Shown: positions 12,533 through 44,439 of the stretch, piece by piece
Position numbering within the stretch: position 1 is the stretch's first letter
Layout of the letters: every line of letters begins with the position of its first letter
Source of the DNA: an uncultured Muribaculaceae bacterium
GTDB taxonomy: Bacteria; Bacillota_I; Bacilli_A; RF39; UBA660
Length of the DNA stretch: 45,970 nt
Reading direction: 5' to 3'
Assembly (NCBI GenBank): GCA_964616495.1
Contig: CAZTRF010000003.1
Coordinates: 1 to 45,970, forward strand
Notes under the pieces: generated by a model
Database searches by the model: none
The model's input: the letters and a program-made list of their open reading frames with translations, nothing else
What the model was told of the DNA's origin: nothing
Position numbers and translations under genes: made by a program

Positions 12533-12557
12533 AAAATATCTTAACAAGATATTTTTT
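12531..12557. terminator. Bidirectional terminator between convergent genes
   Basis: AAAATATCTT-AACA-AGATATTTT palindrome flanked by an A-run and a T-run. Confidence 0.65.
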
Positions 12558-12978
12558 AATGTATTTCTTTACAAATACTAGGCTCCGGATTATAAAAGCA
12601 ATGATTTTTATATCTTCCTGAAAGCTTTTGATTATACCAAGTTGATTTGCAACTAGTGCCTGTAGCTGGGGCATAAAACCACAATGCGTTAGTAGCAGGA
12701 TGATAGTATTCTCCATCTAGAACACGTTCGGCAAGCCTTTTTTCTAAGGTAGTTGCAGCACTTTGAAATAAAGAACTACTCGTACCAACAAATTGACTTT
12801 TTTGATATATTGCCTCAGTAACAGTTCTGATGTCTTTAAAAGTTAAGCAATTGGCAATCACTCTATTAACTACGACATTTCCAACCATGAGCATGCCTAA
12901 ATTGCCTTCTGCTAAAGCTTCTGCTCTCATAATTCTAGCCAAAAGATCTTTTTCTTTAGTTGAATATTGTATAAACAT
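12556..12978 (-). CDS. cwlJ: Spore cortex-lytic enzyme, CwlJ/SleB (Hydrolase_2) family
   Basis: 140 aa. LLARIMRAEALAEGNLGMLMVGNVVVNRV...ALWFYAP...WYNQ...KNHCFYNP aligns along its length with my recollection of B. subtilis CwlJ (LMARLLRAEAEGEG...LLVGNVGINRL...SLWYF...WYNQ...KSHCFYQP). Confidence 0.8.
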   Translation of the reverse strand: MFIQYSTKEKDLLARIMRAEALAEGNLGMLMVGNVVVNRVIANCLTFKDIRTVTEAIYQKSQFVGTSSSLFQSAATTLEKRLAERVLDGEYYHPATNALWFYAPATGTSCKSTWYNQKLSGRYKNHCFYNPEPSICKEIH

Positions 12979-13053: not shown

Positions 13054-13127
13054 AGAGGCGTGGTATAATGGTAGCATAGGAGTCTCCAAAACTTTTGATG
13101 GGAGTTCGATTCTCTCCGCCTCTGCCA
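13054..13127 (+). tRNA. trnW: tRNA-Trp (anticodon CCA)
   Basis: Cloverleaf folded by hand. Acceptor stem AGAGGCG/CGCCTCT, anticodon loop CTCCAAA, T-arm GGGAG-TTCGATT-CTCTC, discriminator G and an encoded CCA end. Confidence 0.85.
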
Positions 13128-13190: not shown

Positions 13191-13832
13191 ATGATCAATA
13201 TTTTGTTTAGTGGAATTGATAAAGAAAATGGATTTACAAATAAGCAAGCGGAAGTATTAAAAAAAGATTTAACTGATGATATGAGTATTACATTTGTATC
13301 TTCTATTTTTAATAACTATGAGCGAAGTAATGCACAATTTACTAGATATTTAAATTGCTTTAAAAAGATAGGAATAACGTTTAGTAGTAGTTATATTATT
13401 GATAATAGAATGAATATAAGTGAAGCATGTGAAAAAGTTGCTAATTCGGACATTGTATTTCTATTAAGTGGATCTCCAGAATTACAAATGAAATCTATAA
13501 TCGAGTATAATTTGACAGACTTAATTTCAAAATCGAAAATAATAATTGGAGTAAGTGCGGGATCAATGAACCAATCTAAAATAGTTATGTATAGAGATGA
13601 TTTTGATAATAATACAATGAAAAAATATTATGGATTAAATTTAATAGATATAAATATATTTCCTCATGTTTCTTTTGAAAATAAGAAATTGTTAGAAGAA
13701 GCAAAAGAAATAAGTGAATATATGCCACTTATTTTACTTCAAAATGAATCATTTATAAGAATTAATAATGGTTTGATGGACGTTTTTGGTAAATATTATA
13801 TTTTAAATAATAGAATTTTGATAAAAAAATGA
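13191..13832 (+). CDS. Peptidase S51 (dipeptidase E-like) family protein
   Basis: GVSAGSM nucleophile motif in a class-I glutamine-amidotransferase-like context. Start ATG 13191 after AGGTGA; the track start 13155 lies within the tRNA terminator. Confidence 0.6.
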   Translation: MINILFSGIDKENGFTNKQAEVLKKDLTDDMSITFVSSIFNNYERSNAQFTRYLNCFKKIGITFSSSYIIDNRMNISEACEKVANSDIVFLLSGSPELQMKSIIEYNLTDLISKSKIIIGVSAGSMNQSKIVMYRDDFDNNTMKKYYGLNLIDINIFPHVSFENKKLLEEAKEISEYMPLILLQNESFIRINNGLMDVFGKYYILNNRILIKK

Positions 13833-13860
13833 AATTGTTATAATTAAATTGGGTGATAAA

Positions 13861-14355
13861 ATGAATATAAAACTAAAAAAAATAGAAAGTAAAGATAAAA
13901 TTGTTTTAAATAATTTATTTCAACTATACATGCATGATATTACTGGTTCATTACCTATGGAAGTAAATGAACATGGATTATTTGAATATAATGAAATTGA
14001 CTACTATTTTAATAAAGAAACTAAGCGTTTTGCATATTTTATTAAAGCAGATAATCAACTTGCTGGTTTTGCATTAATAGATGATGATTTTATGGTTTTA
14101 GATAAAAAAGATAATAATTATGATTTTTCGGAAATGTTTATATTGAATTCTTATAAAAATAAAGGTATTGGGAAAATAGCTGCAGAAAAAATATTTGATA
14201 TGCATCAGGGCAATTGGGAAGTTAAACCGGTTCCAAGGAGCGAAGGTGCTAAAAGATTTTGGGAAAGAACAATAAAAGAATATACCAAAGATAATTATAA
14301 AATTGAATATCCTAAACCTAATAGGACTACTTTTATATTTAATAACAAAAAATAA
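13861..14355 (+). CDS. GNAT-family N-acetyltransferase
   Basis: FSEMFILNSYKNKGIGKIAAEKIF is an acetyl-CoA-binding Q/R-x-x-G-x-G/A-like motif. Start ATG 13861 after GGGTGA. Confidence 0.65.
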   Translation: MNIKLKKIESKDKIVLNNLFQLYMHDITGSLPMEVNEHGLFEYNEIDYYFNKETKRFAYFIKADNQLAGFALIDDDFMVLDKKDNNYDFSEMFILNSYKNKGIGKIAAEKIFDMHQGNWEVKPVPRSEGAKRFWERTIKEYTKDNYKIEYPKPNRTTFIFNNKK

Positions 14356-14516
14356 TATAAGGTTTAAGTAATGAATTTTTATACTTAAACGACCTTATAT
14401 AGAAGTGTTCACTTTTACAAAAAAGTTTGTTTTTTAATGCTTATAATAAGTACGTAAATACATGCTAATTTAACTTTTTAAATAGATAACGATTTATATT
14501 TGTTTGTATAGGTTAT

Positions 14517-14545
14517 TTGACAAAAATAATATAAAGATATATAAT
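14517..14545 (+). promoter_or_regulatory. Consensus sigma-A promoter of the trpS leader
   Basis: TTGACA (14517-14522), a 17-nt spacer, then TATAAT (14540-14545). Confidence 0.7.
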
Positions 14546-14570
14546 CTAGCCATTAAAGGAGAAAAAAACT

Positions 14571-14654
14571 ATGAATAATTTTAATATTATTAAATTAAAC
14601 AATTCATGGTGGGTATGGGAAAAGGGTATCTCATACATTTTTTATCGTTCATAA
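14571..14654 (+). CDS. 27-codon Trp-rich leader peptide (MNNFNIIKLNNSWWVWEKGISYIFYRS) upstream of trpS
   Basis: AAAGGAGA RBS 8 nt upstream of ATG 14571. Three Trp codons fall within four positions (14607-14618). The ORF lies between the promoter and an intrinsic terminator. Confidence 0.6.
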   Translation: MNNFNIIKLNNSWWVWEKGISYIFYRS

Positions 14655-14685
14655 ATATTGACTTTATAATTAATTTGAAATGGAT

Positions 14686-14724
14686 AAATGTATGTATGAG
14701 TAAAATTATACATACATTTTTTTG
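14686..14724 (+). terminator. Leader terminator (attenuator) upstream of trpS
   Basis: Stem ATGTATGTATG (14688-14698) pairs with TATACATACAT (14707-14717), extended by A/T pairs and followed by a TTTTTTT run. It sits 50 nt before the trpS start. Confidence 0.7.
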
Positions 14725-14773
14725 TTAAGCATAAAACAATAAACAAATATAATAAAAGAAAGAGGAAATTAAG

Positions 14774-15778
14774 ATGAAAAAAACAATGATTACGGGGGTA
14801 CAACCAACAGGTAATTTTACATTAGCAAATTACATAGGAGCTATTAAAAACTTTGTAAATTTGCAAGAACAATATGATTCATATATCTTTATAGCTGATT
14901 TACATGGATTAACCACTTATCAGGATCCAAAAAAGATTCATGAAACCATTTTAAATTTAGCAGCAATTTATTTAGCATGTGGAGTAGATCCTACACATAC
15001 TAGTTTATTTGTTCAAAATGAGGTTTCAGAACATTGTACATTAGGATTTTTAATTGCATTTCAATGTAGAATTGGCGAATTATCTAGGATGACACAATAT
15101 AAATCAAAAAAGCAAAAGTTAGGAGAAAATGGAATAGATTTAGGGCTTTTTATATATCCGGCATTAATGGCAGCAGATATTCTTTTATACGATGCAGATA
15201 TTGTTCCGGTTGGCATGGACCAAAAACAACATATAGAAATTACTAGAAACTTAGGAGAAAGATTTAATAAAAAATTTGGTAATACATTTAAATTACCAGA
15301 ATATTATATTCCTGCGGTTGGAGCTAAAATTATGAATTTACAAAATCCAAACGAAAAAATGAGCAAATCGGCTTCACCAACCGATAAAGGAACAATATTT
15401 ATATTGGATGATATAGAAGTAACTAAAAAGAAAATAATGCAAGCTAAAACTGATGACGATAATCAAATTAAATTTGACGAAAAAAATAAACCTGGTATAT
15501 CTAATTTAATTTCTATTATGTCAGCATTGACCAATATAGAAGTAAAAGATATAGAAGAAAAATATAAAAAATATAATTATGGGGACTTTAAAAAAGCGTT
15601 AGCTGAAGAAGTTGAAAGCTTTATTTTACCTATCCAAGAAAGATATAAAAAATATAGATATAGTTCAGAATTACTAGAAATATTGAATAATGGTTCTAAC
15701 AAGGCAAAACGAGTTGCCAGTCAAAAAATTAAAATAGTTAAACAAAAAATGGGTATTAATTATATGGAAGAGTTATAG
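14774..15778 (+). CDS. trpS: Tryptophan--tRNA ligase
   Basis: 334 aa. TGVQPTGNFTLANYIGA (TrpRS variant of the HIGH motif), YPALMAADILLYDADIVPVGMDQKQHIEITRNLGERFN and KMSKS. These are collinear with my recollection of Bacillus TrpRS. Confidence 0.95.
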   Translation: MKKTMITGVQPTGNFTLANYIGAIKNFVNLQEQYDSYIFIADLHGLTTYQDPKKIHETILNLAAIYLACGVDPTHTSLFVQNEVSEHCTLGFLIAFQCRIGELSRMTQYKSKKQKLGENGIDLGLFIYPALMAADILLYDADIVPVGMDQKQHIEITRNLGERFNKKFGNTFKLPEYYIPAVGAKIMNLQNPNEKMSKSASPTDKGTIFILDDIEVTKKKIMQAKTDDDNQIKFDEKNKPGISNLISIMSALTNIEVKDIEEKYKKYNYGDFKKALAEEVESFILPIQERYKKYRYSSELLEILNNGSNKAKRVASQKIKIVKQKMGINYMEEL

Positions 15779-15861
15779 TTGTAAAACCTTTAATTTTTAC
15801 CAATTATGACAAATAGAAATATCACTTTTTTTATGATAAAATATTTTTAAAGGAGATTTGT

Positions 15862-16338
15862 ATGGATTTTAATGAGATTGTTAAAGAGAAAATGAAACCA
15901 ATATATGCCAAAGAAATTGCTGGTTGGAAATATGAAAATGAATATCAAGTTTATAATATGCCTTCGTATGAAGAAATGGTATTAAACAATTTTTCAATAA
16001 CTAAAAAAGAAGAAGCAAAAAATTATATTGTCTATTTATTAGATAATAAAGTTGTTGCTTATTCAAAAATAAAAGTTATGCATGATAATTATTTATACTT
16101 TGGAATTGGATTGGCTCCTGAATTATGTGGAAAAAAATTAGGAGGATATTTTATTGAAGACAGTATTAATGAATTTAAAGTTAAATATCCCGATAAGGCT
16201 TTTTATTTAGAAGTTAGAAGTAATAATAATAGAGCTATTAAAGCTTATGAGAAAATAGGATTTATTCAGACTAATAAAATAGTTAAAAAAGATCGTCTTA
16301 ATAATGATACAGAATTTGTTGAGATGTTACTAAGATAA
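15862..16338 (+). CDS. GNAT-family N-acetyltransferase
   Basis: 158 aa. GLAPELCGKKLGGYF and NNRAIKAYEKIGF motifs. Confidence 0.7.
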   Translation: MDFNEIVKEKMKPIYAKEIAGWKYENEYQVYNMPSYEEMVLNNFSITKKEEAKNYIVYLLDNKVVAYSKIKVMHDNYLYFGIGLAPELCGKKLGGYFIEDSINEFKVKYPDKAFYLEVRSNNNRAIKAYEKIGFIQTNKIVKKDRLNNDTEFVEMLLR

Positions 16339-16438
16339 CTTAAATATGTATTTTAGTTGTATAACGAAACTTATTTAAAATGAATTTATAAACTTATGTT
16401 TATAAGTTAATTGAATGTTAATTAAAGGGAAGGTAAAT

Positions 16439-17041
16439 ATGAAAAAAAGTTTGAAATATATAATGGTAAGTTTATTTTTAATTGGATTTGTCGTTTTACT
16501 TTTAAATGTTAGAAATCATCCGATTTTAAAGATTGATGGTTTAATAAACGATTTTATGCTAGCTATAAGAACCAATGGATTAACCCGTTTAATGAAAATC
16601 CTAACTAATTTAGGTAGCGGAATATTTTTAATATGTTTGTCTATTTTACTAGTTATCTTTATTAAAGAAAGAAAAAAGTCCTTTGCTATTTGTTTAAATC
16701 TTTTATTTGGATTTTTACTTAATTATGGTTTAAAATTTTTAACAGGAAGAAATAGGCCATTAGAACCTTTGATTGAAGTTACTGGATATAGTTTTCCATC
16801 GGGCCATTCTACAGCTAGTTTTACTTTTTACGGATTTCTTATTTATCTGATTTTAAAAAGTAATCTATCAAAAAAAATAAAAACTATTATAACGACAATT
16901 TTGGTTCTTATTATTATAACTATAATGTTTAGTAGAATTTATTTGGGAGCTCACTTTTTAACTGATATTATTGGAAGCATCTTAATATCTATTCCTTACT
17001 TAATAATTTTTATTAATGTTTTAAAATTAAAAAAAGTTTAG
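16439..17041 (+). CDS. PAP2-family phosphatase (BcrC / undecaprenyl-diphosphatase-like)
   Basis: PAP2 motifs KFLTGRNRP, FPSGHS and SRIYLGAHFLTD in a multi-TM protein. Start ATG 16439 after AGGGAAGG. Confidence 0.8.
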   Translation: MKKSLKYIMVSLFLIGFVVLLLNVRNHPILKIDGLINDFMLAIRTNGLTRLMKILTNLGSGIFLICLSILLVIFIKERKKSFAICLNLLFGFLLNYGLKFLTGRNRPLEPLIEVTGYSFPSGHSTASFTFYGFLIYLILKSNLSKKIKTIITTILVLIIITIMFSRIYLGAHFLTDIIGSILISIPYLIIFINVLKLKKV

Positions 17042-32794: not shown

Positions 32795-35700
32795 ATGCAA
32801 AAGAAATTAAATAAATCTATTAGAAATTATTATTACAAGAAAAATTATCGAGATTTTATTTTAAATAAAAATCCTTTAGTATTGTTTAAAAACTTAAAAA
32901 AGTTATTATTTCCAGGATTTAGCAAATTAGAAGATTTAAAAGATAAGCCTAAGGCCATTAAAAAAGCTTTAACTTTTGAAAAAAGAACTTATTTAAAATT
33001 TGCTGTTATTATTGCTATTCTTGTCTTTACTTTCTCTAATTCATTTTCATGGTTATATGAATATTATCTTAGTCATGGCTCATTAATTACCACTGGAGAA
33101 ATTAGTCATGAAATTATTGAATATGATGATACAGGAGCTGCCTTATTAGAAGATTCTATTACTCATACCTTGATTTATGAAACTAATATGAGTAATGTAA
33201 CTAAATCCACAAAGTTTTTAGAGGTTCGTAATACTGGAACTCTAGATATGGAATATAGTGTTTCATTCTCTTTAGAAGGAACCATTGAAGTGTCGGGAAT
33301 AATGTTTTATCGTATTTATGATATAACTAGCGAAGTTAATAATGAAACAATTTCAGCAACTTATCCTACCAGATTACAGGCTTATGCCGCTAACAATCCA
33401 ATAGATCCAGCTTTAGAAACTGATACTACAAAACCAGTTTCTAATATGAGTTTACTTAATAATTTAATTGTTACAGGAACTGTGGAAGTAAATAATGATC
33501 CAACCTTAAATTCTAAATATTATCGTATTGATTATGGCATGTATACGGGAGTCACAACTACGGCCTATCAAGATGATTCTTTTTCAGTTCATTTAAATGT
33601 ATATTCTTCTCAAGTGGGAACCATTTCTAATTCAGCTAATTCTCATATATGGGAAGTTAGTACCGAAACTCAATTACGTGAAGTTTTATTATCATCAAAT
33701 TCAGGTGATACCATTAGACTGATTGATGATATTTCGATAGCTGGTAATTTAGCTATATCAAAAAGAATTAATTTAGATACCAATGATTATATTTTAAATA
33801 TAGCTGGAGATTTAATTTATGATTTTGTTAACTTAGGCAATTTAACTATTGATGTTTCTGGAGAAGGACGTATTAGGGTTGGAAATAACTTTAATATGAC
33901 CGTTCCTAAGGCATCTGTCCATATTATAGGAAATGACAAAAATTATGACTTCTTTGTCGGAGGCACTGTAACTTGGAATGCAATTCAAGATGGTGAAAAT
34001 GATGGTATTTTGTTAGAAAATGTTAATTTTGTCAGTAGTACTCAAACCTTAATGCCAATTAATGTTAATTTATTATCTAATACCAGACTTACTTTAGCTC
34101 CGGGGGTTAGATTAGGATTTGTTTATGCTAATCAAGGGTCAACCAATATTGAAGTTATCAACAATGGTATTATTACGCAATTGCAATTTCAAGATATGAA
34201 TTTACTTGCTACCTTTACTAAAGCACAAATTTACGTTTATAATTTAGGTACTATTTTAGGAGTTGAAGGATCTACTGGTATTCTTTTACCAACAACATCT
34301 ACTCCTTATTTGGGCCCTAATAATGGTAATACTTTAATCGTTAGAGGTATCACATCATCGGATATTACTGTATCTGGATCTCAAAATTACACTCTTATTG
34401 ATATTCAAAATAATTATACTAATTCATCGGTTATTCCTTATAATGTGGTCCCTAATGTAGAGCCGGATTCTTATATGGTCTACATAAGAGAAAATAATGT
34501 TTCGGTAGAAAGTTTATTAACTGAATATTTTGAACAAAGAAACGTTGTTAGTGCTTCAGCAAGCATAACTGGTATTAAGAATTTAATGATTTATACCCTA
34601 AATGCTCAATATGTTGAAAATGAAGATTTCGCATTCTTTAAGAGCACCCGAATTCCAAATTTAGAATATCTAAATTTAGAAAATTCTCGTATTAAAGATG
34701 ATTCTAATGGAACAACTGTTTACAACAAAATTGTAGATGGAGCTATGGAAGGAAAAACCAGTCTAAAAACCTTATTACTTCCTAATACATTAATTGAAAT
34801 AGGAGATTATGCCTTTAATGGAATAGTTTTAGGACATTTATCTAATTTATCATCAGAATCATTTAGTTTTATTACTATTCCTGAGACAGTAGAGGAAATA
34901 GGAGACTATGCCTTCTATAATGCTGAATATGTAAAAATGAGATCAGCTAATGTTCCAACACTTTATGCACATAGCTTTAATACAAGTAATAGCGGTGCTA
35001 AGTATTTTGTTCCTCATGGAAGTATATCTACCTATCAAGAAAACCAATATATTAACGAAATTAATGTTCACGAAACTGCTGATTTATCTGATAATAGGCG
35101 TTACTTCCTTTATGATAGTATCAATGGTGGATATGGAATTTCTTATAATGTTAATAACTTAAATACTTCTACTACTTTAGGTATTCCAGGAACAGAAATT
35201 TATAATGGAACAGAAAAAAATATTACTGCTATCGGAACTTCTGCATATCGTGATTTATCAATAACAAATGCTGAAGGAGTAGCTTTGATTTTGGAGAGCA
35301 CAGTTGCTAAAATAGATGCTTACGCTTTCTATGACTTAAATATTAAATCGGCCTCATTTAGTAGTATTACCGAAGTGGGAGACTATGCTTTTTATAGTGT
35401 GCCTTTAGCTAGAGTTTTTGGAAATAATATTACTAAAATAGGAAATTATGCTTTTTATGAAAGTGGAATAACTAATCTTTCATTAGGCAATATTTCTTCA
35501 ATAGGAAATTATGCCTTTACTAATAATTTATCATTAACTGAAATTGATTTAGGAAATATTAGAACAATAGGAAATTATGCTTTTTCTAATTGTCAATCTA
35601 TTACTAAGGCAACTTTTGATACCATTGAAACCGAAATAGTAAACAATGCTGAAGAAATGAATATTCAACTTGGAACAAATGCTTTAGTGGGAAATTGGGG

Positions 35701-38700
35701 TAGTTATACCGATGGGCGTCTTAGAATCTATGTTCCAAATGGTTTAAGCTCTAATAATGTCAGTTATTTATCTCTTTATAAAAAATTACTTCCTAATGTA
35801 GCTCAATATGTATATCAACAAGGCCTTAATTCAACTATAGCTCAATATGGATATCCATTAGGAACTGATTCTGATACCACTTATACCCATTTAATGGTTC
35901 CTTTTGTTTTTAATGATTATACAGTTAAAGAGGTAAGTTTAACTAATAAAAATGGTAACAGCGTTACCGGATGGGAAATAATTTCATATCAGGGAGCTGA
36001 TTTAAATAATAGTTATGATATTCCTAATAGTATTACTGCTGGCCCTAATAATATTACTTATCCAGTTATTTCGATTGGAGAAGGGGCTTATCGCAATGTT
36101 AATATTGAAACTGACCATATTATTGAAATAGATAATTCTAATTTACTTAAAATAGGTTCTTATGCTTTTTATAATTTAGAGTTAAAAACCATTCATACTC
36201 CTGAAGTTTTACAAATAGGTTCTTATGCTTTTAGTGGAACCAGTTTGGAAGTAGCCCGTTTTGAAAACCTTCAAGTTTTAGGGGATTATGCCTTAACTAG
36301 TATTACTAACTTATATAGTTTAAATATTGGTAAAGTTGCTTTGATGGGATATAATTGTATTTCAGATAATGCTAACTTAGAGCAATTGTTTATTAATAAT
36401 ACAGACTTAAATATCGTATTAAATGGGTCACCATTTGCTAATATTGGAACCAATAGTAATGAACGTCTTAGAATTTATGTTCCAGATAGTACAACCTCCC
36501 TTACATATTATAAAAATTTAATTTCAGAATATGCCGATTACATTTATCCAACCGGAACTATTATTGGTTCTTTCGTTAATGGATCTCTTTATTATGATAT
36601 TGGAGAGTATACGGTTAAAGAGGTTACTTTAAATAATTATGCTAATGAGAGTGTTACGGGATGGGAAATAATTGAGTATCATGGAGCCAATTTATCTAGT
36701 TCCTTTGATATAGCAACTAATTTAACAGCTATTACATCAAACTTAACAGCTTCGGTGGTTAAGGTTGGAAACAATGGCAATGTTTATCAGTATGCAGTTA
36801 CGATTACCAATAATGGTAATACTGGTGTTAGTTCATGGAAAATGAATATGACTTTGCCTTCAAGTGTTACTTATAATTCAGTTTCTAATGCTTTGGTAAC
36901 TAATAATACTACTAGCTTATATATTAGAAATACACCTTCAAATGCAGTAATAGCTGCTGGAGGGACAGCAACGTTTACCATTTACTTAGAGACTTTAATT
37001 ACAAGTTATATGCCATATTTTTCTGATGTTAATGTTACCAATCCAACTGGAACAACTCTTCCGGTAATCTCAGTTGGAAATTATGCCTTTATTCATACTA
37101 TTTCGGAACAAGATGCTAGTATTAATATTACTAATGATAATCTTTTATCAATAGGTATAGATGCTTTTAGAAATATAACCAATATTAAATCTTTAATTTT
37201 AAATGAAGTGTTAACTGTAGGTAGTGGAGCCTTTTATAATAATGCAACCATTGAAACAGTGACTTTCAATCATTTAAATGAAATTAGAGCTAATGCTTTC
37301 GGTAATTCATCAAGATTGTTTAATATTAATTTTGGCAAAGTTACTATTATGGACGCTAATGTTTTAACAAATGCCCCTTATCTAGAACAGGTGTTCTTTG
37401 ATGTTAGACATGTTAACTTAGCTATTGATTATCAATCAATTAATAACGTTGGTTCTCAAGCCAATAATCGTTTAAGATTCTATGTTACTGATGGCACTGA
37501 CACTAATAATATTCCTTATGTTAACACTTATAGAGATTTATTTTTGAATGAATATAAAGACTATTTTTATCCAAAAGGATATATAATTGGAAATTATTCA
37601 CAACCTAATAGTCCTTTTGTTATAGGAGATTATTCGGTTAGAGAAGTAACCGTTAAAGATAAAGACAACAATGATGTGACGGGATGGGAATTTATTGAAT
37701 ATCATGGTGCTGATTTATCCGGAGCATATAATTTCCCGGATGAGGCAACTTATATTAGCAGTACTATATCGGGAGTATTAAGATATAATAGATCTTGGAA
37801 TAACAACGTGACTTATAACGATGAATATTATGTTGATATTTATAATAATGGAACGCTTCCTACAACTTCATGGCAATTTGATCTTGACTATTCATCAGGA
37901 GCTACTGTCACAACATATAGTTGTAATAAAGTAAATGGAGCTAATGGTTTAACTATTACCAATGCCAGTTGGAATAAAACAATTGCTGTAGGAGAATTTG
38001 AAAGTTGTCAGGTTATTATATCTTATTCAAGCCCTGATATTTATGCTTCGATTAGTAATGTTAGACAGGCATCAGATGCTCAAATTACCAATCCGATTGT
38101 TGTGATTGGAGATTATGCCTTTAGTCATGCTTTATCTAATTCTAATACAAGTTTTGATATCATTAATAATGATTTAATTTATATTGGCGATTCAGCTTTT
38201 GATAATTTTACCGGGGCAGTTAATTTATCATCTACCGGAGTTATTGAAGTAGGAGAATATGCCTTTAGAGGCAATCATCTTCAAACTATTAATTTACCTA
38301 ATTTAGTTACTTTAGGACAATATGCTTTTGCTAATAATCCGAACTTATATTATGCTAATTTAGGCAAGACCACTTCTTTACCAAGCAGTGTCTTAGCCGG
38401 AGCAGTTAATTTAACCCAGTTATTCTTAAATAATACCACAATTCCAAATGGATCAACATCTATGAATCTAGCTATTGGAGAAAATGCTTTATTGAATGTT
38501 GGGCAAAATATGGACCAAAGATTTAGAATATATGTTCCGGCTGGAAGTATACCAGGAGCTCAAAATAATTTAACCTATGTAACAGCATACAAAAACACTT
38601 TACCATCATCATTTAGCTTATATATTTATGAAACTGGAACCCTAATAGGAGATAACTACAATCATGGTAGTATTCCTTATGTTATTAAAGAATATATGGT

Positions 38701-40768
38701 TAAAATGACCACTATTGATGGCGTAAATGGTCTTCAAATAATCGATTATCATGGTCCAGATATATCTACTAACTATGCTTATCCTGATACTCTTTATTAT
38801 AATAATGCTAATACTAATGTTATTGCTATTGGTGATGGAGCATTTAGATTAACCGATGTTACTAATAGTTGGACCTTTGATATTGAAACGTCCAACTTAC
38901 AATCGATTGGTGATTATGCATTCTATAATTTTAGTGCAATAGATGTCATTAATACTCCTAATTTAAAAACAGTAGGATCATATGCTTTTAGATATAATAA
39001 TATAAGTTATTTTAGTGCTCCGCAATTAACTAGTATTGGGAATTATGCCTTAGCTGATAATACTTTACTTTATTATGTTGATGCAGGATTAATTGAAGTT
39101 ATATCATATGGTTTATTCTATAATGATGCTGCAATGCTTCAGATGTTTTTTAGAAGTACCCATGATGATTCTACTTCTAGTAGAATGAGTCTAGATATTC
39201 AGGGTGAAGCATTTACTAATATGGGAAATATTTCTTCTAAACGATTTAGAATTTATGTTCCTGATGGAATAGTTCCAAATACGGGAGATACACTTACATA
39301 TTTGCAAGCTTATAAAAATACTTTTCCAACTAGTTTAGCACCATACATTTTTGAAACTGGTTTCTTAGTTGGAGCTTATGTTTATTCAAATACCTATTCT
39401 ATTTTTAATTATATGATTAAAGAAGTAACAATTGACGGAACAACTGGCTGGCAAATAGTTGATTATCATGGTCCAGATGCTGGTGCTTCATTTGTAATGG
39501 ATAGTCCAATGACTAATGCTTTGGGTGAAGAATTACCAGTAATATCTATAGGAGATAATTCATTCAGATATACGATTGCTACGACGGGATCTAATTGGAG
39601 CTTAACTTTACCATCTAGTGTTATTTATATTGGAGACTATGCTTTCTATCAAAGAGATGTGTATGAATTAACGGCTTCTGACTTAATATATATTGGCGAA
39701 AGAGCTTTCTATCAATGTCGTAAATTAACTACTGTAGCTATTGGAGATGCAGAAGTTATATCTGACTATGCTTTCTATAATACAACAGTTTCTACTGTGA
39801 CCTTAGGAGATGATGTTAGTAGTATTGGAAATTATGCTTTCTATAATACCTATGATAACAATGCCTTAAGTAACTTTTATATAATGTCTACAACACCACC
39901 AACCATTTATTCAACAACTTTCCCACCACGAAGAGAATCTTCCAGTTTCTTTGGAACTACCTACTCATTTAATATTACTTTCCATGTTCCATATGCTTAC
40001 CAAGAAGATTATGAAACGGCTCCAAATTGGTCATATTATAAGGGAACTGTACCGGGGCTTTTTGGTAGTACAAGTTATGATAGAATTGTAGGAATTGGAT
40101 CAATAAGTAATAACTACTTTGTTTTTAATATCATTAATACTAATGAAGCTGAAATAGTTGGATATACCAGAACTAGTGTTAGTAATAATAATTTAACAGT
40201 ACCAACTTCGCTTAGAACTAGTAGTAGTAACACTTATTATACAGTTACCTCTATAGCTGGGAATGCTTTTGATAACTTAACAAGCCTAACTAAAATAACT
40301 TTACCAAGTTCTTTAAAAGCCATAGGCGATAATTTCCTTGCTGGTAATAGATCTCTTCAATCTATTAATGTTAGTGGCGGGACCTACTTTACTAGTATTG
40401 ATTCAGTATTATTTAGTTATGATAGAACGGCGTTAATTAAATTCCCATCTGCAAAAACTACAACCAATAATAGTTATGCTATTCCTAGTACAACAAGAGT
40501 CATAGTAGCGGGCGCATTTTCTGGAAATAGATATACTACTCAAGTTACCTTAAATACAGATTTAGTAGCTATTGGAAATGGGGCTTTTGATAATACAACA
40601 AGATTAAATAATTATTATTTTGAAGGAAGTGTTCCTCCTTATTTATTAGGATTTGACGTCTTCCCAGTTTCAAGCAGTTTAAGAATGTACTATAGAACCG
40701 CCTATTTTGATACCTATAATACTAACATTTTCTATTCAAAATATTCTGCTTATGCTTATACATATTAG
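32795..40768 (+). CDS. Giant 2,657-aa surface protein: N-terminal TM/SipW-like signal, TasA-like domain, beta-helix-like region and 5-6 BspA-type LRR modules with two CBM-like inserts
   Basis: AGGAGGA RBS. FAVIIAILVFTFSNSFSWLYE, then FLEVRNTGTLDMEYSVSF (TasA-like). QLREVLLSSNSGDTIRLIDDISIAGNLAISKRINLD looks like a right-handed beta-helix. There are dozens of IG(D/N)YAF(Y/S)N LRR_5 units. Module ends recur as RLRIYVP ... Y(T/S)V(K/R)EV ... VTGWEIIEYHGA(D/N)L. Confidence 0.85.
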   Translation: MQKKLNKSIRNYYYKKNYRDFILNKNPLVLFKNLKKLLFPGFSKLEDLKDKPKAIKKALTFEKRTYLKFAVIIAILVFTFSNSFSWLYEYYLSHGSLITTGEISHEIIEYDDTGAALLEDSITHTLIYETNMSNVTKSTKFLEVRNTGTLDMEYSVSFSLEGTIEVSGIMFYRIYDITSEVNNETISATYPTRLQAYAANNPIDPALETDTTKPVSNMSLLNNLIVTGTVEVNNDPTLNSKYYRIDYGMYTGVTTTAYQDDSFSVHLNVYSSQVGTISNSANSHIWEVSTETQLREVLLSSNSGDTIRLIDDISIAGNLAISKRINLDTNDYILNIAGDLIYDFVNLGNLTIDVSGEGRIRVGNNFNMTVPKASVHIIGNDKNYDFFVGGTVTWNAIQDGENDGILLENVNFVSSTQTLMPINVNLLSNTRLTLAPGVRLGFVYANQGSTNIEVINNGIITQLQFQDMNLLATFTKAQIYVYNLGTILGVEGSTGILLPTTSTPYLGPNNGNTLIVRGITSSDITVSGSQNYTLIDIQNNYTNSSVIPYNVVPNVEPDSYMVYIRENNVSVESLLTEYFEQRNVVSASASITGIKNLMIYTLNAQYVENEDFAFFKSTRIPNLEYLNLENSRIKDDSNGTTVYNKIVDGAMEGKTSLKTLLLPNTLIEIGDYAFNGIVLGHLSNLSSESFSFITIPETVEEIGDYAFYNAEYVKMRSANVPTLYAHSFNTSNSGAKYFVPHGSISTYQENQYINEINVHETADLSDNRRYFLYDSINGGYGISYNVNNLNTSTTLGIPGTEIYNGTEKNITAIGTSAYRDLSITNAEGVALILESTVAKIDAYAFYDLNIKSASFSSITEVGDYAFYSVPLARVFGNNITKIGNYAFYESGITNLSLGNISSIGNYAFTNNLSLTEIDLGNIRTIGNYAFSNCQSITKATFDTIETEIVNNAEEMNIQLGTNALVGNWGSYTDGRLRIYVPNGLSSNNVSYLSLYKKLLPNVAQYVYQQGLNSTIAQYGYPLGTDSDTTYTHLMVPFVFNDYTVKEVSLTNKNGNSVTGWEIISYQGADLNNSYDIPNSITAGPNNITYPVISIGEGAYRNVNIETDHIIEIDNSNLLKIGSYAFYNLELKTIHTPEVLQIGSYAFSGTSLEVARFENLQVLGDYALTSITNLYSLNIGKVALMGYNCISDNANLEQLFINNTDLNIVLNGSPFANIGTNSNERLRIYVPDSTTSLTYYKNLISEYADYIYPTGTIIGSFVNGSLYYDIGEYTVKEVTLNNYANESVTGWEIIEYHGANLSSSFDIATNLTAITSNLTASVVKVGNNGNVYQYAVTITNNGNTGVSSWKMNMTLPSSVTYNSVSNALVTNNTTSLYIRNTPSNAVIAAGGTATFTIYLETLITSYMPYFSDVNVTNPTGTTLPVISVGNYAFIHTISEQDASINITNDNLLSIGIDAFRNITNIKSLILNEVLTVGSGAFYNNATIETVTFNHLNEIRANAFGNSSRLFNINFGKVTIMDANVLTNAPYLEQVFFDVRHVNLAIDYQSINNVGSQANNRLRFYVTDGTDTNNIPYVNTYRDLFLNEYKDYFYPKGYIIGNYSQPNSPFVIGDYSVREVTVKDKDNNDVTGWEFIEYHGADLSGAYNFPDEATYISSTISGVLRYNRSWNNNVTYNDEYYVDIYNNGTLPTTSWQFDLDYSSGATVTTYSCNKVNGANGLTITNASWNKTIAVGEFESCQVIISYSSPDIYASISNVRQASDAQITNPIVVIGDYAFSHALSNSNTSFDIINNDLIYIGDSAFDNFTGAVNLSSTGVIEVGEYAFRGNHLQTINLPNLVTLGQYAFANNPNLYYANLGKTTSLPSSVLAGAVNLTQLFLNNTTIPNGSTSMNLAIGENALLNVGQNMDQRFRIYVPAGSIPGAQNNLTYVTAYKNTLPSSFSLYIYETGTLIGDNYNHGSIPYVIKEYMVKMTTIDGVNGLQIIDYHGPDISTNYAYPDTLYYNNANTNVIAIGDGAFRLTDVTNSWTFDIETSNLQSIGDYAFYNFSAIDVINTPNLKTVGSYAFRYNNISYFSAPQLTSIGNYALADNTLLYYVDAGLIEVISYGLFYNDAAMLQMFFRSTHDDSTSSRMSLDIQGEAFTNMGNISSKRFRIYVPDGIVPNTGDTLTYLQAYKNTFPTSLAPYIFETGFLVGAYVYSNTYSIFNYMIKEVTIDGTTGWQIVDYHGPDAGASFVMDSPMTNALGEELPVISIGDNSFRYTIATTGSNWSLTLPSSVIYIGDYAFYQRDVYELTASDLIYIGERAFYQCRKLTTVAIGDAEVISDYAFYNTTVSTVTLGDDVSSIGNYAFYNTYDNNALSNFYIMSTTPPTIYSTTFPPRRESSSFFGTTYSFNITFHVPYAYQEDYETAPNWSYYKGTVPGLFGSTSYDRIVGIGSISNNYFVFNIINTNEAEIVGYTRTSVSNNNLTVPTSLRTSSSNTYYTVTSIAGNAFDNLTSLTKITLPSSLKAIGDNFLAGNRSLQSINVSGGTYFTSIDSVLFSYDRTALIKFPSAKTTTNNSYAIPSTTRVIVAGAFSGNRYTTQVTLNTDLVAIGNGAFDNTTRLNNYYFEGSVPPYLLGFDVFPVSSSLRMYYRTAYFDTYNTNIFYSKYSAYAYTY

Positions 40769-40789: not shown

Positions 40790-40821
40790 AAAACTTTCTA
40801 TTTAAAATAGAAAGTTTTTTT
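40790..40821. terminator. Bidirectional terminator between the giant gene and the ger operon
   Basis: Palindrome AAAACTTTCTA-TTTAAAA-TAGAAAGTTTT with flanking A and T runs. Confidence 0.7.
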
Positions 40822-41877
40822 ATAATATTTAGATAATTTTATTTTAATGAAAGTTATAAATATAAGTAATAAGATTATTCCTCTAATATATATAGCTTTC
40901 GTATAGATATAGTTATTAAATTGAATACTATTTTTGAAAACAATAAGAGAAAATATCATAATAATAAAAATGATTATAGAAGGAATAATATATTTATTTT
41001 TAGATTTTTTAACAAAGGATTTTATAAAATAGGTTATAAAGGTTAAGGAAAAGAAAATTCCAAATATCCACTGAATATTAATAATGTTTTCAACCCGATC
41101 TAAAAAGTTAAAATAATTTACTTTTTTAAGAACTATATATTCAGGAAATTGATATATTCTACTTAAATGAATTCCTAAATTGCCTAAAGTTACAAAACTG
41201 ATAATAAACATTAATAAAAGAGCTATAAAGTAAGCTAAAATTATTTGCTTTTTAGAAGATTTAATTTGTTTTTTAGGAATACCTAAAAATAAGAATATAG
41301 GAGAGATATTAAAAAGTATTATATATAAAGAACCTTTGAGAGGTGCTTTTATTCCATACTCTAAAATGGGTTTTAAGTTATCTATTTCTATTTGTGGTGT
41401 AAGATTAAAAACAGCTAATAAATATAATGTAAGATTAATAATTACTAAAATAAAACACATACTTGAAATAGCTTTAATATCTTTACTAACGGCCCAAATA
41501 ACTAATAGAGCAAATAAAAAGGCAATTATAAGAGGAGGAGTAAACTGTAAAATTTGAGTTGTAATAAAAACAGTTAAGTTATACATTAGGCTTACCCCAA
41601 TAATGGCTGCTCCTATTACAAATAAAACATTTATTATAAAACCAACTTTTTTGCCAAATAAAGTAATAATTTTTTCTTTAAGATTAAGTTCTGGCTGATA
41701 GTTAAAAATAGTAATAAAAAAATATAAAATAATAAGCCCTAAAAAAGAGGCAATAATTATACTAAAATAAGAATCAACACCAGCTGACTTTATTGAAGAA
41801 AAAATACCTATTCCTAAGAAATTGGTTAAAAAAAGCATTAAAATCATACTGGAAAATTCCAATTTACTTATTTTCAT
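40798..41877 (-). CDS. Spore germinant receptor B subunit (GerAB/GerKB family, APC-like permease)
   Basis: 359 aa, about 10 TM helices. It is the last gene of an A-C-B ger operon and overlaps the C gene by 14 nt. Confidence 0.8.
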   Translation of the reverse strand: MKISKLEFSSMILMLFLTNFLGIGIFSSIKSAGVDSYFSIIIASFLGLIILYFFITIFNYQPELNLKEKIITLFGKKVGFIINVLFVIGAAIIGVSLMYNLTVFITTQILQFTPPLIIAFLFALLVIWAVSKDIKAISSMCFILVIINLTLYLLAVFNLTPQIEIDNLKPILEYGIKAPLKGSLYIILFNISPIFLFLGIPKKQIKSSKKQIILAYFIALLLMFIISFVTLGNLGIHLSRIYQFPEYIVLKKVNYFNFLDRVENIINIQWIFGIFFSLTFITYFIKSFVKKSKNKYIIPSIIIFIIMIFSLIVFKNSIQFNNYIYTKAIYIRGIILLLIFITFIKIKLSKYYKKTFYFK

Positions 41878-43024
41878 TATTTATCACCCTTAAAGTATTT
41901 CCTTTTTCTGCAATTGAGGCCTTTACTTTGATTTCAAAGTTAAGATTATTAATAAATTCATCAAAATTAATAGTTTTATAAAATTTATTATTATTTTTAT
42001 ATAAGTAATCATTAATATTTAAAGAATCTATTTTATTTTCTTTATAAAGTTTATTAATTAATTTTTCAGATTCACTTTTAATGTTATTAGCCAATAACTT
42101 TTCTAACTTTTTTATTTCTTTTTCATCTTCAAGGTTAATGTTACAGGTTATTTCATTAATATTGGCTTTTACCCTTATATCAATATAAAAAGTTTTATTA
42201 TAGTTAAATTTGGTTTTGTTAGAAGTGATTTCTAAAGTTGTATAATTATTTTCATCACACTTTAATGTCAAAACACTTTCATTAATATTATTTTTTAAAA
42301 AAGAAAAATAAATACTTTCTTTATTATCTAAATAAAGGGCTAATTTACTATCTTTAAATAACCCGGTACTACCAATTTCTAAAATATCATCAACTTTAGC
42401 CTTTTTTAATGAATCAATATTGTCATAATCATAGTCACTTTTTAAAGTTATTGTGGGAATAAATATTTCTCGTTTTTTATTTAGATAGTCGTTTAAAAAC
42501 TCTTCCATAGTTAAGACGGTGGTTGCTCCTAAATATTTTTCATTAGTTTTAATCATTGAAACGATACTATTAGCATTTATTCCCTCTAATGGAGTAATAG
42601 TTTTTAAAATATCTTTGGCCTGTCCATTTTTAGCAATAATTACTAAAAATTGTTTTCTAGATTCAGTATCCCTAAAGACAATATCCATAATCTTATCTAT
42701 TCCTTGATAAGCTAATTCCTCCCCAATAATATATAATTGAAGATGTTCGGCATATAATCTTTTGGGTGAAACATCCACTACTTTTCTAAGGCCTTCTTGA
42801 ATAGTTTTGCTTTCAATTTCATAAATATTAAATTCTGGTTTAGAATAACCACTTTCAATATCACTATTTTTTTTAGTAATATTAACTATTTGAGAAGTTA
42901 TAATATAATTTTCATCTTTAATATCTAAGCCAACAGCACTCATAATTGCTAGTTCATCTAATTCTCGATAATTAAAACAACCAGTGACTATCAAACATCC
43001 TATTAAAATAAATAGTTTTTTCAT
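41864..43024 (-). CDS. Spore germinant receptor C subunit (Ger(x)C lipoprotein)
   Basis: Lipobox LIGCLIVTGC followed by FNYRELDELAIMSAVGLD, the typical Ger(x)C N-terminus. ATGA-type overlap with the A subunit. Confidence 0.85.
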   Translation of the reverse strand: MKKLFILIGCLIVTGCFNYRELDELAIMSAVGLDIKDENYIITSQIVNITKKNSDIESGYSKPEFNIYEIESKTIQEGLRKVVDVSPKRLYAEHLQLYIIGEELAYQGIDKIMDIVFRDTESRKQFLVIIAKNGQAKDILKTITPLEGINANSIVSMIKTNEKYLGATTVLTMEEFLNDYLNKKREIFIPTITLKSDYDYDNIDSLKKAKVDDILEIGSTGLFKDSKLALYLDNKESIYFSFLKNNINESVLTLKCDENNYTTLEITSNKTKFNYNKTFYIDIRVKANINEITCNINLEDEKEIKKLEKLLANNIKSESEKLINKLYKENKIDSLNINDYLYKNNNKFYKTINFDEFINNLNFEIKVKASIAEKGNTLRVINNENK

Positions 43025-44439
43025 TTTTTTTGATCTCCTAACTGGTTGGGGCTAACCGTTTTGGTAGTGGTTTTTGTTTTTATAATAGAATCTTTTAGTC
43101 CCTTAGAATCAAGGGGAGATATTGGCATTAAATAGGGAACTCCTAAGGAAGTGGTGCTAATTAAATTGATTAAAAAGAAAATAAAGGCTATAACAACTCC
43201 AATTACTCCCAAAATGGTTCCCCCAAGCATAAAAATAATTCGGTAAATTCGAAGAGAGTTAATAAATGATGGCTCGGTAAATGGTAGAGAACAAATAGCT
43301 GTGAAAGCTATAGTAATTATCATGATTGGTGATACTATTCCGGCACTAACGGCTGCTTCTCCTAAGATTAAAGCACCCACTATTGAAAGAGAACCAGTAG
43401 AAATACTAGGCATTCTGATATCAGCTTCTCTAATTAAGTCAAAAGCAAAAATCATAATGAATGCTTCAATAAAGGCTGGAAAAGGGACTCCGCTTCTTTG
43501 GGCTGCAAAATTTACTAATAATTTGGTTGGAATAATTTCTTGATTATAGTTAACTAAAGCAATGTATAATCCGGGACCAGCTATGGCTATAAAAAAAGCA
43601 ATAAACTTTAATAGTCGAATAATGGTAACATTGATGCTTTTACTATATATATCATCAGGAGTTTTAAAAAAGTCATTTATAGTGACAGGAAGAATTAAGG
43701 AATAGCAAGAATTATCAATAGTAATAACCACTTTTCCCTCTAAAAGAGAATTACAGACTAAGTCAGGTCTTTCGGTAGTTTGAATTGTAGGAAATAAAAA
43801 AGAATCTTTTTCAAGTAATAAATTTTTTAAAATTTCCCCATCTACAATTCCATCAACGACTAAATTACTAAGTTTTTTAGTTATTTGCTTAACATAAGAG
43901 GCATTAGAAAGGTTTTTCATATAAAGGAGACTAGTCTTAGTTTTGGTTTCTTTCCCAATATAAAAGTTTTTAATCCATAAATTATTACTTTTAATTCTTT
44001 TTTTTATAAGTCCGGTATTTATTTGAATATCTTCAACAAAAGAGTCTCTGCTGCCTCTAACAGTAGTTTCAGCTATAGGAGTGGCGATAGACCTATTTAA
44101 AAGAGCTCTAGTTTCTAATGCTAAAGGTTCTTCATTAGAAAGAATAATAACAAATCCTCTATTTAAGTAAAAAATTAATTCTTGATAATCTTTTATTTTT
44201 AATATTTTAAAATTAGAAATATTATTAATAATAAAATCATTTAAGTTTTTAACTTTTTTGTTAGTTTCGATATTATTAAGACCTCTAACTACAAAATCAC
44301 TAATTTTATCACTTGATATTAAGGGTTCATTAAATATTAAGATGATTTTTTGTTTCATAAAAAATAATTCGCGATAAATTATATCATCACTATTATTGGT
44401 TTCTTTCTTGAGTTTTAAAATAATATCATATTGATTCAT
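43021..44439 (-). CDS. Spore germinant receptor A subunit (GerA family)
   Basis: 472 aa. SRDSFVEDIQINTGLIKKRIK, FPTIQTTERPD and a C-terminal 5-TM region are typical of GerAA/GerKA. Confidence 0.9.
   Translation of the reverse strand: MNQYDIILKLKKETNNSDDIIYRELFFMKQKIILIFNEPLISSDKISDFVVRGLNNIETNKKVKNLNDFIINNISNFKILKIKDYQELIFYLNRGFVIILSNEEPLALETRALLNRSIATPIAETTVRGSRDSFVEDIQINTGLIKKRIKSNNLWIKNFYIGKETKTKTSLLYMKNLSNASYVKQITKKLSNLVVDGIVDGEILKNLLLEKDSFLFPTIQTTERPDLVCNSLLEGKVVITIDNSCYSLILPVTINDFFKTPDDIYSKSINVTIIRLLKFIAFFIAIAGPGLYIALVNYNQEIIPTKLLVNFAAQRSGVPFPAFIEAFIMIFAFDLIREADIRMPSISTGSLSIVGALILGEAAVSAGIVSPIMIITIAFTAICSLPFTEPSFINSLRIYRIIFMLGGTILGVIGVVIAFIFFLINLISTTSLGVPYLMPISPLDSKGLKDSIIKTKTTTKTVSPNQLGDQKK

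Follow-up and report, generated by a model that had tools for sequence, protein, structure and literature searches.

The gene trpS, encoding a tryptophan--tRNA ligase of 334 amino acids (TIGR00233, 332 bits against a cutoff of 177), occupies positions 14774 to 15778 of the forward strand of contig CAZTRF010000003.1 (assembly GCA_964616495.1). The whole 45,970-nt stretch analysed is referred to as the window; coordinates are positions in it, and the features of the trpS leader all lie on the forward strand (+). A first-pass annotation of this region proposed that trpS is controlled by a leader-peptide attenuator with tryptophan (Trp) codons rather than by a T-box, and the elements it listed were recovered at the expected places. 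The leader begins with a sigma-70-type promoter (14517-14545) composed of TTGACA (14517-14522), a 17-nt spacer and TATAAT (14540-14545). It matches the consensus at 12 of 12 positions and is the sole site above 9/12 in a promoter scan of 13800-16500. Transcription is predicted to start near 14552. The Shine-Dalgarno (SD) sequence AGGAG (14557-14561) lies 9 nt upstream of the ATG of a well-initiated open reading frame (ORF) of 27 codons plus UAA (14571-14654), which encodes the peptide MNNFNIIKLNNSWWVWEKGISYIFYRS and was also recovered by a scan for SD-preceded upstream ORFs (uORFs) that was blind to Trp content. Three Trp codons fall within four positions of this ORF (14607-14618), where UGG UGG GUA UGG encodes W13, W14, V15 and W16, with UGG at 14607-14609, 14610-14612 and 14616-14618. 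The ORF is followed by an intrinsic terminator, the attenuator proper (14686-14723), in which a 14-bp AU-rich stem (14686-14699 paired with 14706-14719) closes a 6-nt loop (14700-14705) and a tract of seven uridines covers 14717-14723. Its predicted free energy is -14.9 kcal/mol and its end lies 50 nt upstream of the trpS ATG at 14774; the SD sequence of trpS itself reads GAGG at 14762-14765.

The leader is organized, in the predicted structures, as a four-segment layout in which the 1:2 pairing acts as anti-antiterminator, 2:3 as antiterminator and 3:4 as terminator. Segment 1 (GUAUGGGA, 14613-14620) overlaps W16 and is the partner of segment 2 (14629-14651), the antiterminator strand, with which it pairs through 14629-14636 (UCUCAUAC). 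The resulting 1:2 hairpin has a free energy of -8.9 kcal/mol and is followed by six uridines at 14638-14643; it overlaps W16 and at the same time ties up the antiterminator strand. The competing helix is formed between segment 2 and segment 3 (14676-14700), the 3' portion of which (14686-14699) is the 5' arm of the terminator. The core of this helix is the complementarity reported in the first-pass annotation, where CTCATACAT (14630-14638) is the exact reverse complement, at 9 of 9 positions, of ATGTATGAG (14692-14700). The helix continues as 14641-14646 paired with 14683-14688 and 14648-14651 paired with 14676-14679, which brings the total to -15.4 kcal/mol. As a separate observation, the 1:2 hairpin together with AUUUUUUAU (14613-14645, +) is the sole site in 13800-16500 flagged by the terminator scanner. 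The hairpin and its U6 tract may represent a pause site of RNA polymerase (RNAP), or a first, weak and translation-sensitive terminator within the leader ORF.

The influence of the ribosome on these alternative folds was modelled by masking a footprint of 30 nt, from -18 to +11 relative to the A-site, in a transcript folded from 14552. In the minimum free energy (MFE) structures, both the free RNA and the RNA with a ribosome at the stop codon adopt the terminator, while a ribosome placed on W14 or W16 leads to the 2:3 helix and abolishes the terminator. When the transcript ends at 14706, with segment 4 not yet made, the MFE structure contains the 2:3 helix solely with the ribosome on the Trp codons. 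The ensemble scan, in which pair probabilities (P) were obtained at all 28 A-site positions, gave a P(terminator) of 0.99 for the free RNA and of at least 0.99 at every A-site codon outside codons 12-17, including the stop. Inside this zone it was 0.75 at S12, 0.65 at W13, 0.47 at W14, 0.28 at V15, 0.05 at W16 and 0.50 at E17. The sensitive zone thus spans six codons and contains all three Trp codons, for which the chance probability is about 0.007. The effect of the stall is stable for footprint 3' edges from +9 to +13, and it is lost in 20 of 20 trials in which 14630-14638 was scrambled, P(terminator) staying at 0.99 despite the stalled ribosome. The earlier proposal that stalling at the Trp codons favours the antiterminator is therefore supported in silico, and at codon-level specificity. 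Its companion claim, that a ribosome reaching the stop codon covers the antiterminator strand, stands for its outcome but not for its extent: the 2:3 helix is abolished in the model (P=0.00), but the part of the RNA covered by the ribosome is just the 3' half of segment 2 together with the extension helices.

The composition of the leader can be compared with the background of the window, in which Trp makes up 0.79% of the residues in long ORFs. The chance probability of finding three Trp within four codons of a 27-residue ORF is about 3-5e-5, and at least three Trp are present in 2 of the 422 small ATG ORFs of the six frames. Folding of the whole leader gives a z-score of -3.85. The TrpS protein itself is free of Trp in the window and in 19 relatives (20/20 sequences), where about 2.6 residues per protein would be expected from the background. 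It can therefore be produced during Trp-tRNA depletion, which is consistent with selection for synthesis under that condition. For the same reason, the leader codons are the only Trp-dependent translation step at the trpS locus.

The reading favoured here is that trpS is probably governed by a classical ribosome-mediated transcription attenuator with a leader peptide, which would sense charged tRNA-Trp; its support is computational. The features of this class found in the window are the SD-led 5' ORF, the cluster of cognate codons, the terminator, the antiterminator with the 1:2 hairpin and, in silico, the placement of the codons. In the scheme that follows, we infer the transcription start, the pausing, the coupling of transcription to translation and the response to tRNA-Trp charging. 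After initiation at the consensus promoter, the nascent RNA would form the 1:2 hairpin, and the U6 tract would then probably pause RNAP long enough for a ribosome to load onto the leader ORF; the hairpin and tract could in this way supply the pause that ribosome-dependent attenuation needs. When Trp-tRNA is scarce, the ribosome would stall with W13, W14 or W16 in the A-site and cover segment 1. The free segment 2 (14630-14651) would then pair with segment 3 (14676-14700), so that the terminator is blocked and trpS is transcribed. When Trp-tRNA is plentiful, a ribosome moving from codon 18 to the stop would cover segment 2, the 3:4 hairpin would form and transcription would end at U7 (14717-14723). 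If the leader is not translated at all, formation of 1:2 and 3:4 would likewise lead to termination.

The leader was also compared with known RNA families. The check proposed in the first-pass annotation, a search for the T-box model RF00230, was negative as predicted, with no T-box match in an Rfam scan of the whole window at the gathering score, nor in a search of the 501 nt of 14350-14850 at E<=10. RF00513 and the other Rfam leader families gave no match either, and just spurious microRNA and small nucleolar RNA hairpin matches (E 0.7-8) were found on the terminator. Neither the T-box-like motif AGGUGGC, which in the relatives contains the UGGC site pairing with the tRNA acceptor, nor a specifier-loop context is present in the leader. 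Control of the TRAP type was rejected, since 14552-14773 contains 3 scattered (G/U)AG triplets against the 9-11, spaced 2-3 nt, that are needed. Another candidate came from the anti-TRAP (rtpA) operon of Bacillus subtilis, in which the Trp-codon leader rtpLP is combined with a T-box for tandem transcription-translation sensing of uncharged tRNA-Trp (Chen & Yanofsky 2003, 2004, as cited in PMC11255114). The likeness to the window is that a Trp-codon leader senses the charging of tRNA-Trp in a member of the Bacillota. The difference is that rtpLP acts on the translation initiation of the next gene and lies downstream of the T-box, whereas the leader in the window is coupled to a transcription terminator. 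A tandem of the rtpLP type was rejected for the window, where the T-box is absent and 120 nt, including the terminator, separate the leader stop from the trpS SD.

Homologues of TrpS were sought in genome_contigs, metagenome_contigs and a database of 5.8 billion proteins, and the 5' regions of trpS were compared in about 25 distinct lineages. TrpS homologues with E<=1e-100 number roughly 800. A TrpS of 100% identity is present in four Logan runs (contigs L040-L043), in all of which the leader is also 100% identical; P0121 is this protein annotated from a later start. No TrpS between 100% and 76% identity was found in the three collections. The relatives are uncultured gut and sediment Bacilli and "Mollicutes" metagenome-assembled genomes (MAGs), such as Clostridium sp. 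CAG:914. A T-box is present in about 14 of their TrpS lineages (66-76% identity), 11 of which have a Trp-containing uORF downstream of it as well. These T-boxes share with the window leader the gene, the position, the tRNA-Trp charging signal and the terminator/antiterminator output, and they differ in the sensor, which is an RNA-tRNA contact there and a ribosome on an ORF in the window. The WWxW leader, whose conservation in relatives had been suggested as a check, is not conserved as an exact sequence, but Trp-containing leaders recur upstream of the relatives' trpS. In the SD-based scan blind to Trp, the sole trpS-proximal uORF contained Trp in 9/10 uORF-bearing lineages, and three further lineages also had a Trp-containing uORF. 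The exception is L029 (2600-3000), a metagenomic variant of the CAG:914-type locus, in which the UGG of the uORF is changed to UGU and the T-box core GGTGG to GGTAG. Its TrpS match is only 60% identical, and this copy may be decaying or may stem from faulty assembly. The only tRNA gene of the window is a tRNA-Trp(CCA) at 13054-13127 (+), 1.4 kb upstream of trpS. It has G as discriminator and an encoded CCA, which fits the UGGC acceptor-pairing site of the relatives' T-boxes.

The trpS 5' regions fall into four classes. In class A (11 lineages), an RF00230 match of 55-105 bits is combined with an SD-preceded Trp uORF that follows the T-box terminator and precedes the main start. Examples of such uORFs are MNNILLTKRWCINLY in the L001 group (2930-2977), MIKFFRRWCLNT in L044 (241-279), MFIYSMRWWYIIK in L045 (208-249), MYILVKRWWCLND in L051 (1433-1474), MIILRKRWCCLN in L057 (1439-1477), MRIKRWCFNF in L026 (2947-2979) and MKLLSKRWYFLII in L007 (2935-2976). 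In L003 and L004 the uORFs start at 2937 and 2931, respectively, and read MENSEW[DN]WK..., and in L053 and L055 they start at 274 and 277 and read MDN[WC]DW[ND]W.... The uORFs of this class contain one to three Trp codons and share the motif [KR]RW[CWY] or DWxW, with the conserved DNA A(A/G)ACG(A/G)TGGTG. They stop 22-36 nt upstream of the ATG or run across it in another frame. Downstream of the class A uORFs, where folds reach just -5 to -13 kcal/mol, neither a second terminator nor a hairpin that would sequester the SD was found. Since there is no second terminator, the uORF must act post-transcriptionally, as rtpLP does. The tandem geometry of the rtpLP type is present in L001, L003, L004, L007, L026, L044, L045, L051, L053, L055 and L057. 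Class A, whose architecture matches that of B. subtilis rtpLP, thus looks like tandem sensing of the rtpLP type, a T-box followed by a translational Trp leader, applied to trpS and trpB-trpS. No report of such a tandem at these genes was found in the literature search. A resemblance of the KRW[CW] uORF peptides to TnaC was considered and rejected, as the TnaC geometry calls for a much longer spacing between the Trp and the stop. In L053 and L055 (338-2490), trpS is translationally coupled through an ATGA overlap to an upstream trpB, for the beta subunit of tryptophan synthase (TIGR00263, 576 bits), the two genes standing behind one T-box and a WxWxW uORF; the lone trpB suggests indole salvage.

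Class B, with a T-box alone, comprises L005, L006 and L022, and in class D (L002, L050, L021 and L023) trpS is internal to an operon. Class C is the one to which the window belongs, together with L046/L049 and L047. Here, no T-box is found even at E<=0.01, and an SD-preceded Trp leader is followed by alternative hairpins and a terminator. The leader peptide of L046/L049 is MK[KN]L[IV]IRTWRHIGNTYTK, and that of L047, encoded behind a TTGACA-18-TATAAT promoter, is MSNSKKWWQVRS. L046 is syntenic with the window. The T-box-less leaders of these relatives are analogous to the window leader and not alignable with it. At equilibrium, the full-length leaders of L046, L047 and L049 always favour the terminator, so that only shortened, co-transcriptional folds are informative for them. 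In such shortened transcripts of all three, a ribosome on Trp raises the P of the antiterminator to 0.95-0.99. In L046 this P falls to 0.00-0.03 for a ribosome from codon 12 through the stop. The corresponding values in L049 are 0.00-0.04 at codons 12-19 and 0.62 at the stop, and L047 has 0.35 at the stop. One compensatory pair, U-A to C-G, is seen in the inner hairpin of L046/L049, and none beyond that hairpin. Downstream of the L046 terminator (1440-1475), the sequence AUAGGUAUAAGU appears to be a third copy of the motif shared by segment 0 and segment 2 of that leader. L049 keeps it just partly (GGUAUAAGC), and the copy may be a remnant of a duplication.

The distribution of these classes was examined on a neighbour-joining (NJ) tree of TrpS alone, the backbone of which is weak. 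The members of class C do not form a monophyletic group in it (0/100 bootstraps). L046/L049 are nested among class A and share a 96% clade with L002 and L050. The window and L047 branch separately and are grouped in only 12% of bootstraps. A tentative reconstruction, for which the balance falls somewhat short of even, is that the ancestral control of trpS consisted of a T-box with an rtpLP-like Trp uORF, and that the T-box was replaced by ribosome-mediated attenuators independently at least twice, once in the window lineage and once in L046/L049, possibly also in L047.

Several observations weigh against the proposed attenuator in the window. The terminator fails the consensus terminator scan of 13800-16500, because its stem has just two G-C pairs, which is unsurprising at 27% GC. 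The complementarity at the core of the 2:3 helix is modestly beyond chance, at -11.0 kcal/mol against -7.3 +/- 1.8 for dinucleotide shuffles (p=0.03). In the folding model, the effect at W16 is gone when the footprint edge is moved to +15. In the ensemble of the shortened transcript, moreover, the 2:3 helix has a P of 0.36 without a ribosome and of about 0.83 with a ribosome on early codons; as it is already populated without a stall, the off state relies on the kinetic assumption that 1:2 folds first. Comparative evidence is limited in the same direction: the leader is invariant in the species and the next TrpS is just 76% identical, so that no covariation is available for the helices of the window, and the leader has no meaningful alignment with those of L046, L047 and L049, among which only L046 and L049 align mutually. 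Finally, RNAP runs ahead of the lead ribosome in B. subtilis (Johnson 2020, cited in PMC9226507), which tells against ribosome-mediated attenuation unless pausing or coupling differs here.

Among the other explanations considered, one keeps the attenuator and changes its sensor. The G-rich patch UGGUGGGUAUGGGAAAAGGG (14607-14626) is a conspicuous island at 27% GC and could be recognized by an RNA-binding protein, a small RNA, a tRNA or a metabolite, independently of the ribosome, with the Trp codons as a by-product. Firmicutes attenuators are typically protein- or RNA-sensed, and B. subtilis transcription is described as uncoupled from translation (PMC9226507). However, the patch reads in frame as Trp codons of an ORF with a canonical SD, it matches no Rfam family, the leader holds just 3 (G/U)AG triplets and hence no TRAP site, and the leaders of L046/L049 and L047 have in-frame Trp codons without a similar G-rich motif; this sensor is unlikely. 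It is quite unlikely, too, that promoter, ORF and terminator form a stand-alone small-protein gene, whose 27-residue product would act in trans, for example as a membrane-active or signalling peptide, with trpS expressed by leaky read-through or from a weak promoter of its own downstream of the terminator. The aromatic, hydrophobic character of the peptide would suit such a role, as would the perfect promoter, the good SD and the strong hairpin-U7 terminator, and a TATAAT is present downstream of the terminator at 14748-14753. Yet the best -35 element of this TATAAT matches 3/6 positions, the hexamer occurs 173 times in the window, and no promoter site of at least 9/12 lies downstream of the terminator. 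The peptide sequence is moreover unconserved in the relatives, which share just the presence of Trp codons, and a small gene leaves unexplained both the exact complementarity of the ORF to the terminator arm and the coincidence of the Trp codons with the structurally sensitive zone.

The comparison with class A raises a further alternative, in which ribosome stalling would act mainly after transcription, by stabilising the mRNA, with the stalled ribosome as protection at the 5' end, or by translational control resembling that of rtpLP. The relatives with a T-box and a Trp uORF but no second terminator after it show such an arrangement, and the window leader may descend from a Trp uORF of this kind. 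In the window, direct occlusion of the trpS SD is impossible, because it is 120 nt away from the leader stop, beyond a strong terminator, and attenuation fully accounts for the terminator/antiterminator geometry. A mainly post-transcriptional effect is therefore very unlikely, although the two modes can coexist. The relatives could also suggest that a degenerate or atypical T-box in the leader escapes the covariance model, since about 14 related TrpS lineages carry a T-box at this position. This idea is effectively refuted: the model that detects the divergent and shortened T-boxes of the relatives at 55-105 bits finds no RF00230 match at E<=10 over 501 nt of the window, where the distance from the predicted transcription start to the terminator is about 170 nt, half of it taken by the ORF.

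Among characterized systems, the leader attenuator proposed for trpS is closest to E. coli trpL. The first-pass annotation had compared it with pheST (pheM) of E. coli, and this likeness holds insofar as both concern an aminoacyl-tRNA synthetase (aaRS) operon or gene with a leader peptide rich in cognate codons and an attenuator. The amino acid and the phylum differ, however, and the fourth segment, the 1:2 hairpin that had been overlooked, makes trpL rather than pheM the closest analogue, as does the location of the Trp codons in segment 1. In both trpL and the window, there are four segments forming 1:2, 2:3 and 3:4, tandem Trp codons are located within segment 1, RNAP may pause at the 1:2 hairpin, and a stalled ribosome frees segment 2 for the antiterminator. 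The helix energies of trpL are similar to the values of the window for 1:2 (-8.9), 2:3 (-15.4) and 3:4 (-14.9 kcal/mol). The differences are that trpL controls a biosynthetic operon, whereas the window has an aaRS gene in a low-GC member of the Bacillota, that the leader stop of the window lies downstream of segment 2, so that a translating or terminating ribosome masks this segment directly, and that no sequence or Rfam (RF00513) likeness exists between the two leaders.

An attenuator of the same gene class and mechanism exists in Streptomyces, where that of trpRS1 was reportedly confirmed by experiment by Vecchione and Sello in 2010. It belongs to another phylum and a GC-rich genome, serves an auxiliary second trpS copy and has no sequence relationship to the window leader. 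Leader-peptide attenuators were predicted there for trpS (trpS2/trpRS1) and leuS, the trpS one with a Trp-codon leader, an antiterminator and a terminator; as of 2005, the aaRS genes of Firmicutes were described as using T-boxes, none being known with classical attenuation (PMC1262725). In other operons of this phylum, leader peptides are on record: His-leader attenuators were predicted for the his operons of some Firmicutes, namely the B. cereus group, Peptostreptococcaceae and Erysipelotrichales (PMC9413887), and the Leu/phe leader RF01743 of L. lactis is listed (PMC2864571). Like the window leader, these are leader-peptide attenuators replacing T-box or repressor control in particular lineages, and they differ from it in belonging to biosynthetic operons, in the amino acid and in the absence of sequence similarity. 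RF01743 may also be linked to an aaRS gene. For the Bacillota, the literature search found no published leader-peptide attenuator of trpS, an absence that is not conclusive, as subscription journals were outside the search.

The mechanism has long been known, and leader attenuators of trpS are known in Streptomyces, so what is new is the combination of taxon and gene, and the value of the case is evolutionary and taxonomic rather than conceptual. The aaRS genes of Firmicutes are the textbook domain of T-box riboswitches, and the scarcity of ribosome-mediated amino-acid attenuators in B. subtilis has been attributed to its uncoupled, runaway transcription. On this background, an attenuator that depends on the ribosome is somewhat unexpected in Bacilli. 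A trpS in which a T-box was exchanged for a trpL-like leader, beside relatives with the tandem or with the T-box only, would constitute a natural experiment in which the sensor is swapped and the signal and output are unchanged. If the repeated replacement is true, these loci would form a natural series of the switch from RNA-tRNA to ribosome sensing for the same signal at the same gene. If the attenuator works as proposed, these Bacilli, unlike B. subtilis, would keep the lead ribosome near RNAP, through pausing at the hairpin and U-tract or through an expressome, which suggests that transcription-translation coupling differs within Bacilli. A practical consequence is that annotation pipelines limited to T-boxes will overlook the regulation of trpS in these genomes.

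Further genes were noted elsewhere in the window. Between 6075 and 11347, genes for an AbiEi-type antitoxin-like regulator, for an HTH_36 protein and for a large serine recombinase with Resolvase, Recombinase and Zn-ribbon domains lie together. They probably mark the edge of an integrated mobile element, or what is left of one, and the tRNA-Trp gene lies a few kilobases downstream of them. A surface protein of 2657 amino acids, of the BspA-type leucine-rich repeat/CBM2 kind, is encoded at 32795-40768 (+). The reverse strand carries a SleB-like cortex hydrolase (12556-12978, -) and a spore germination receptor operon of the gerA/gerB/gerC type (40798-44439, -). The host, with a GC content of 27% and relatives labelled as Bacilli or 'Mollicutes' MAGs, appears from its gene content to be a spore-former.

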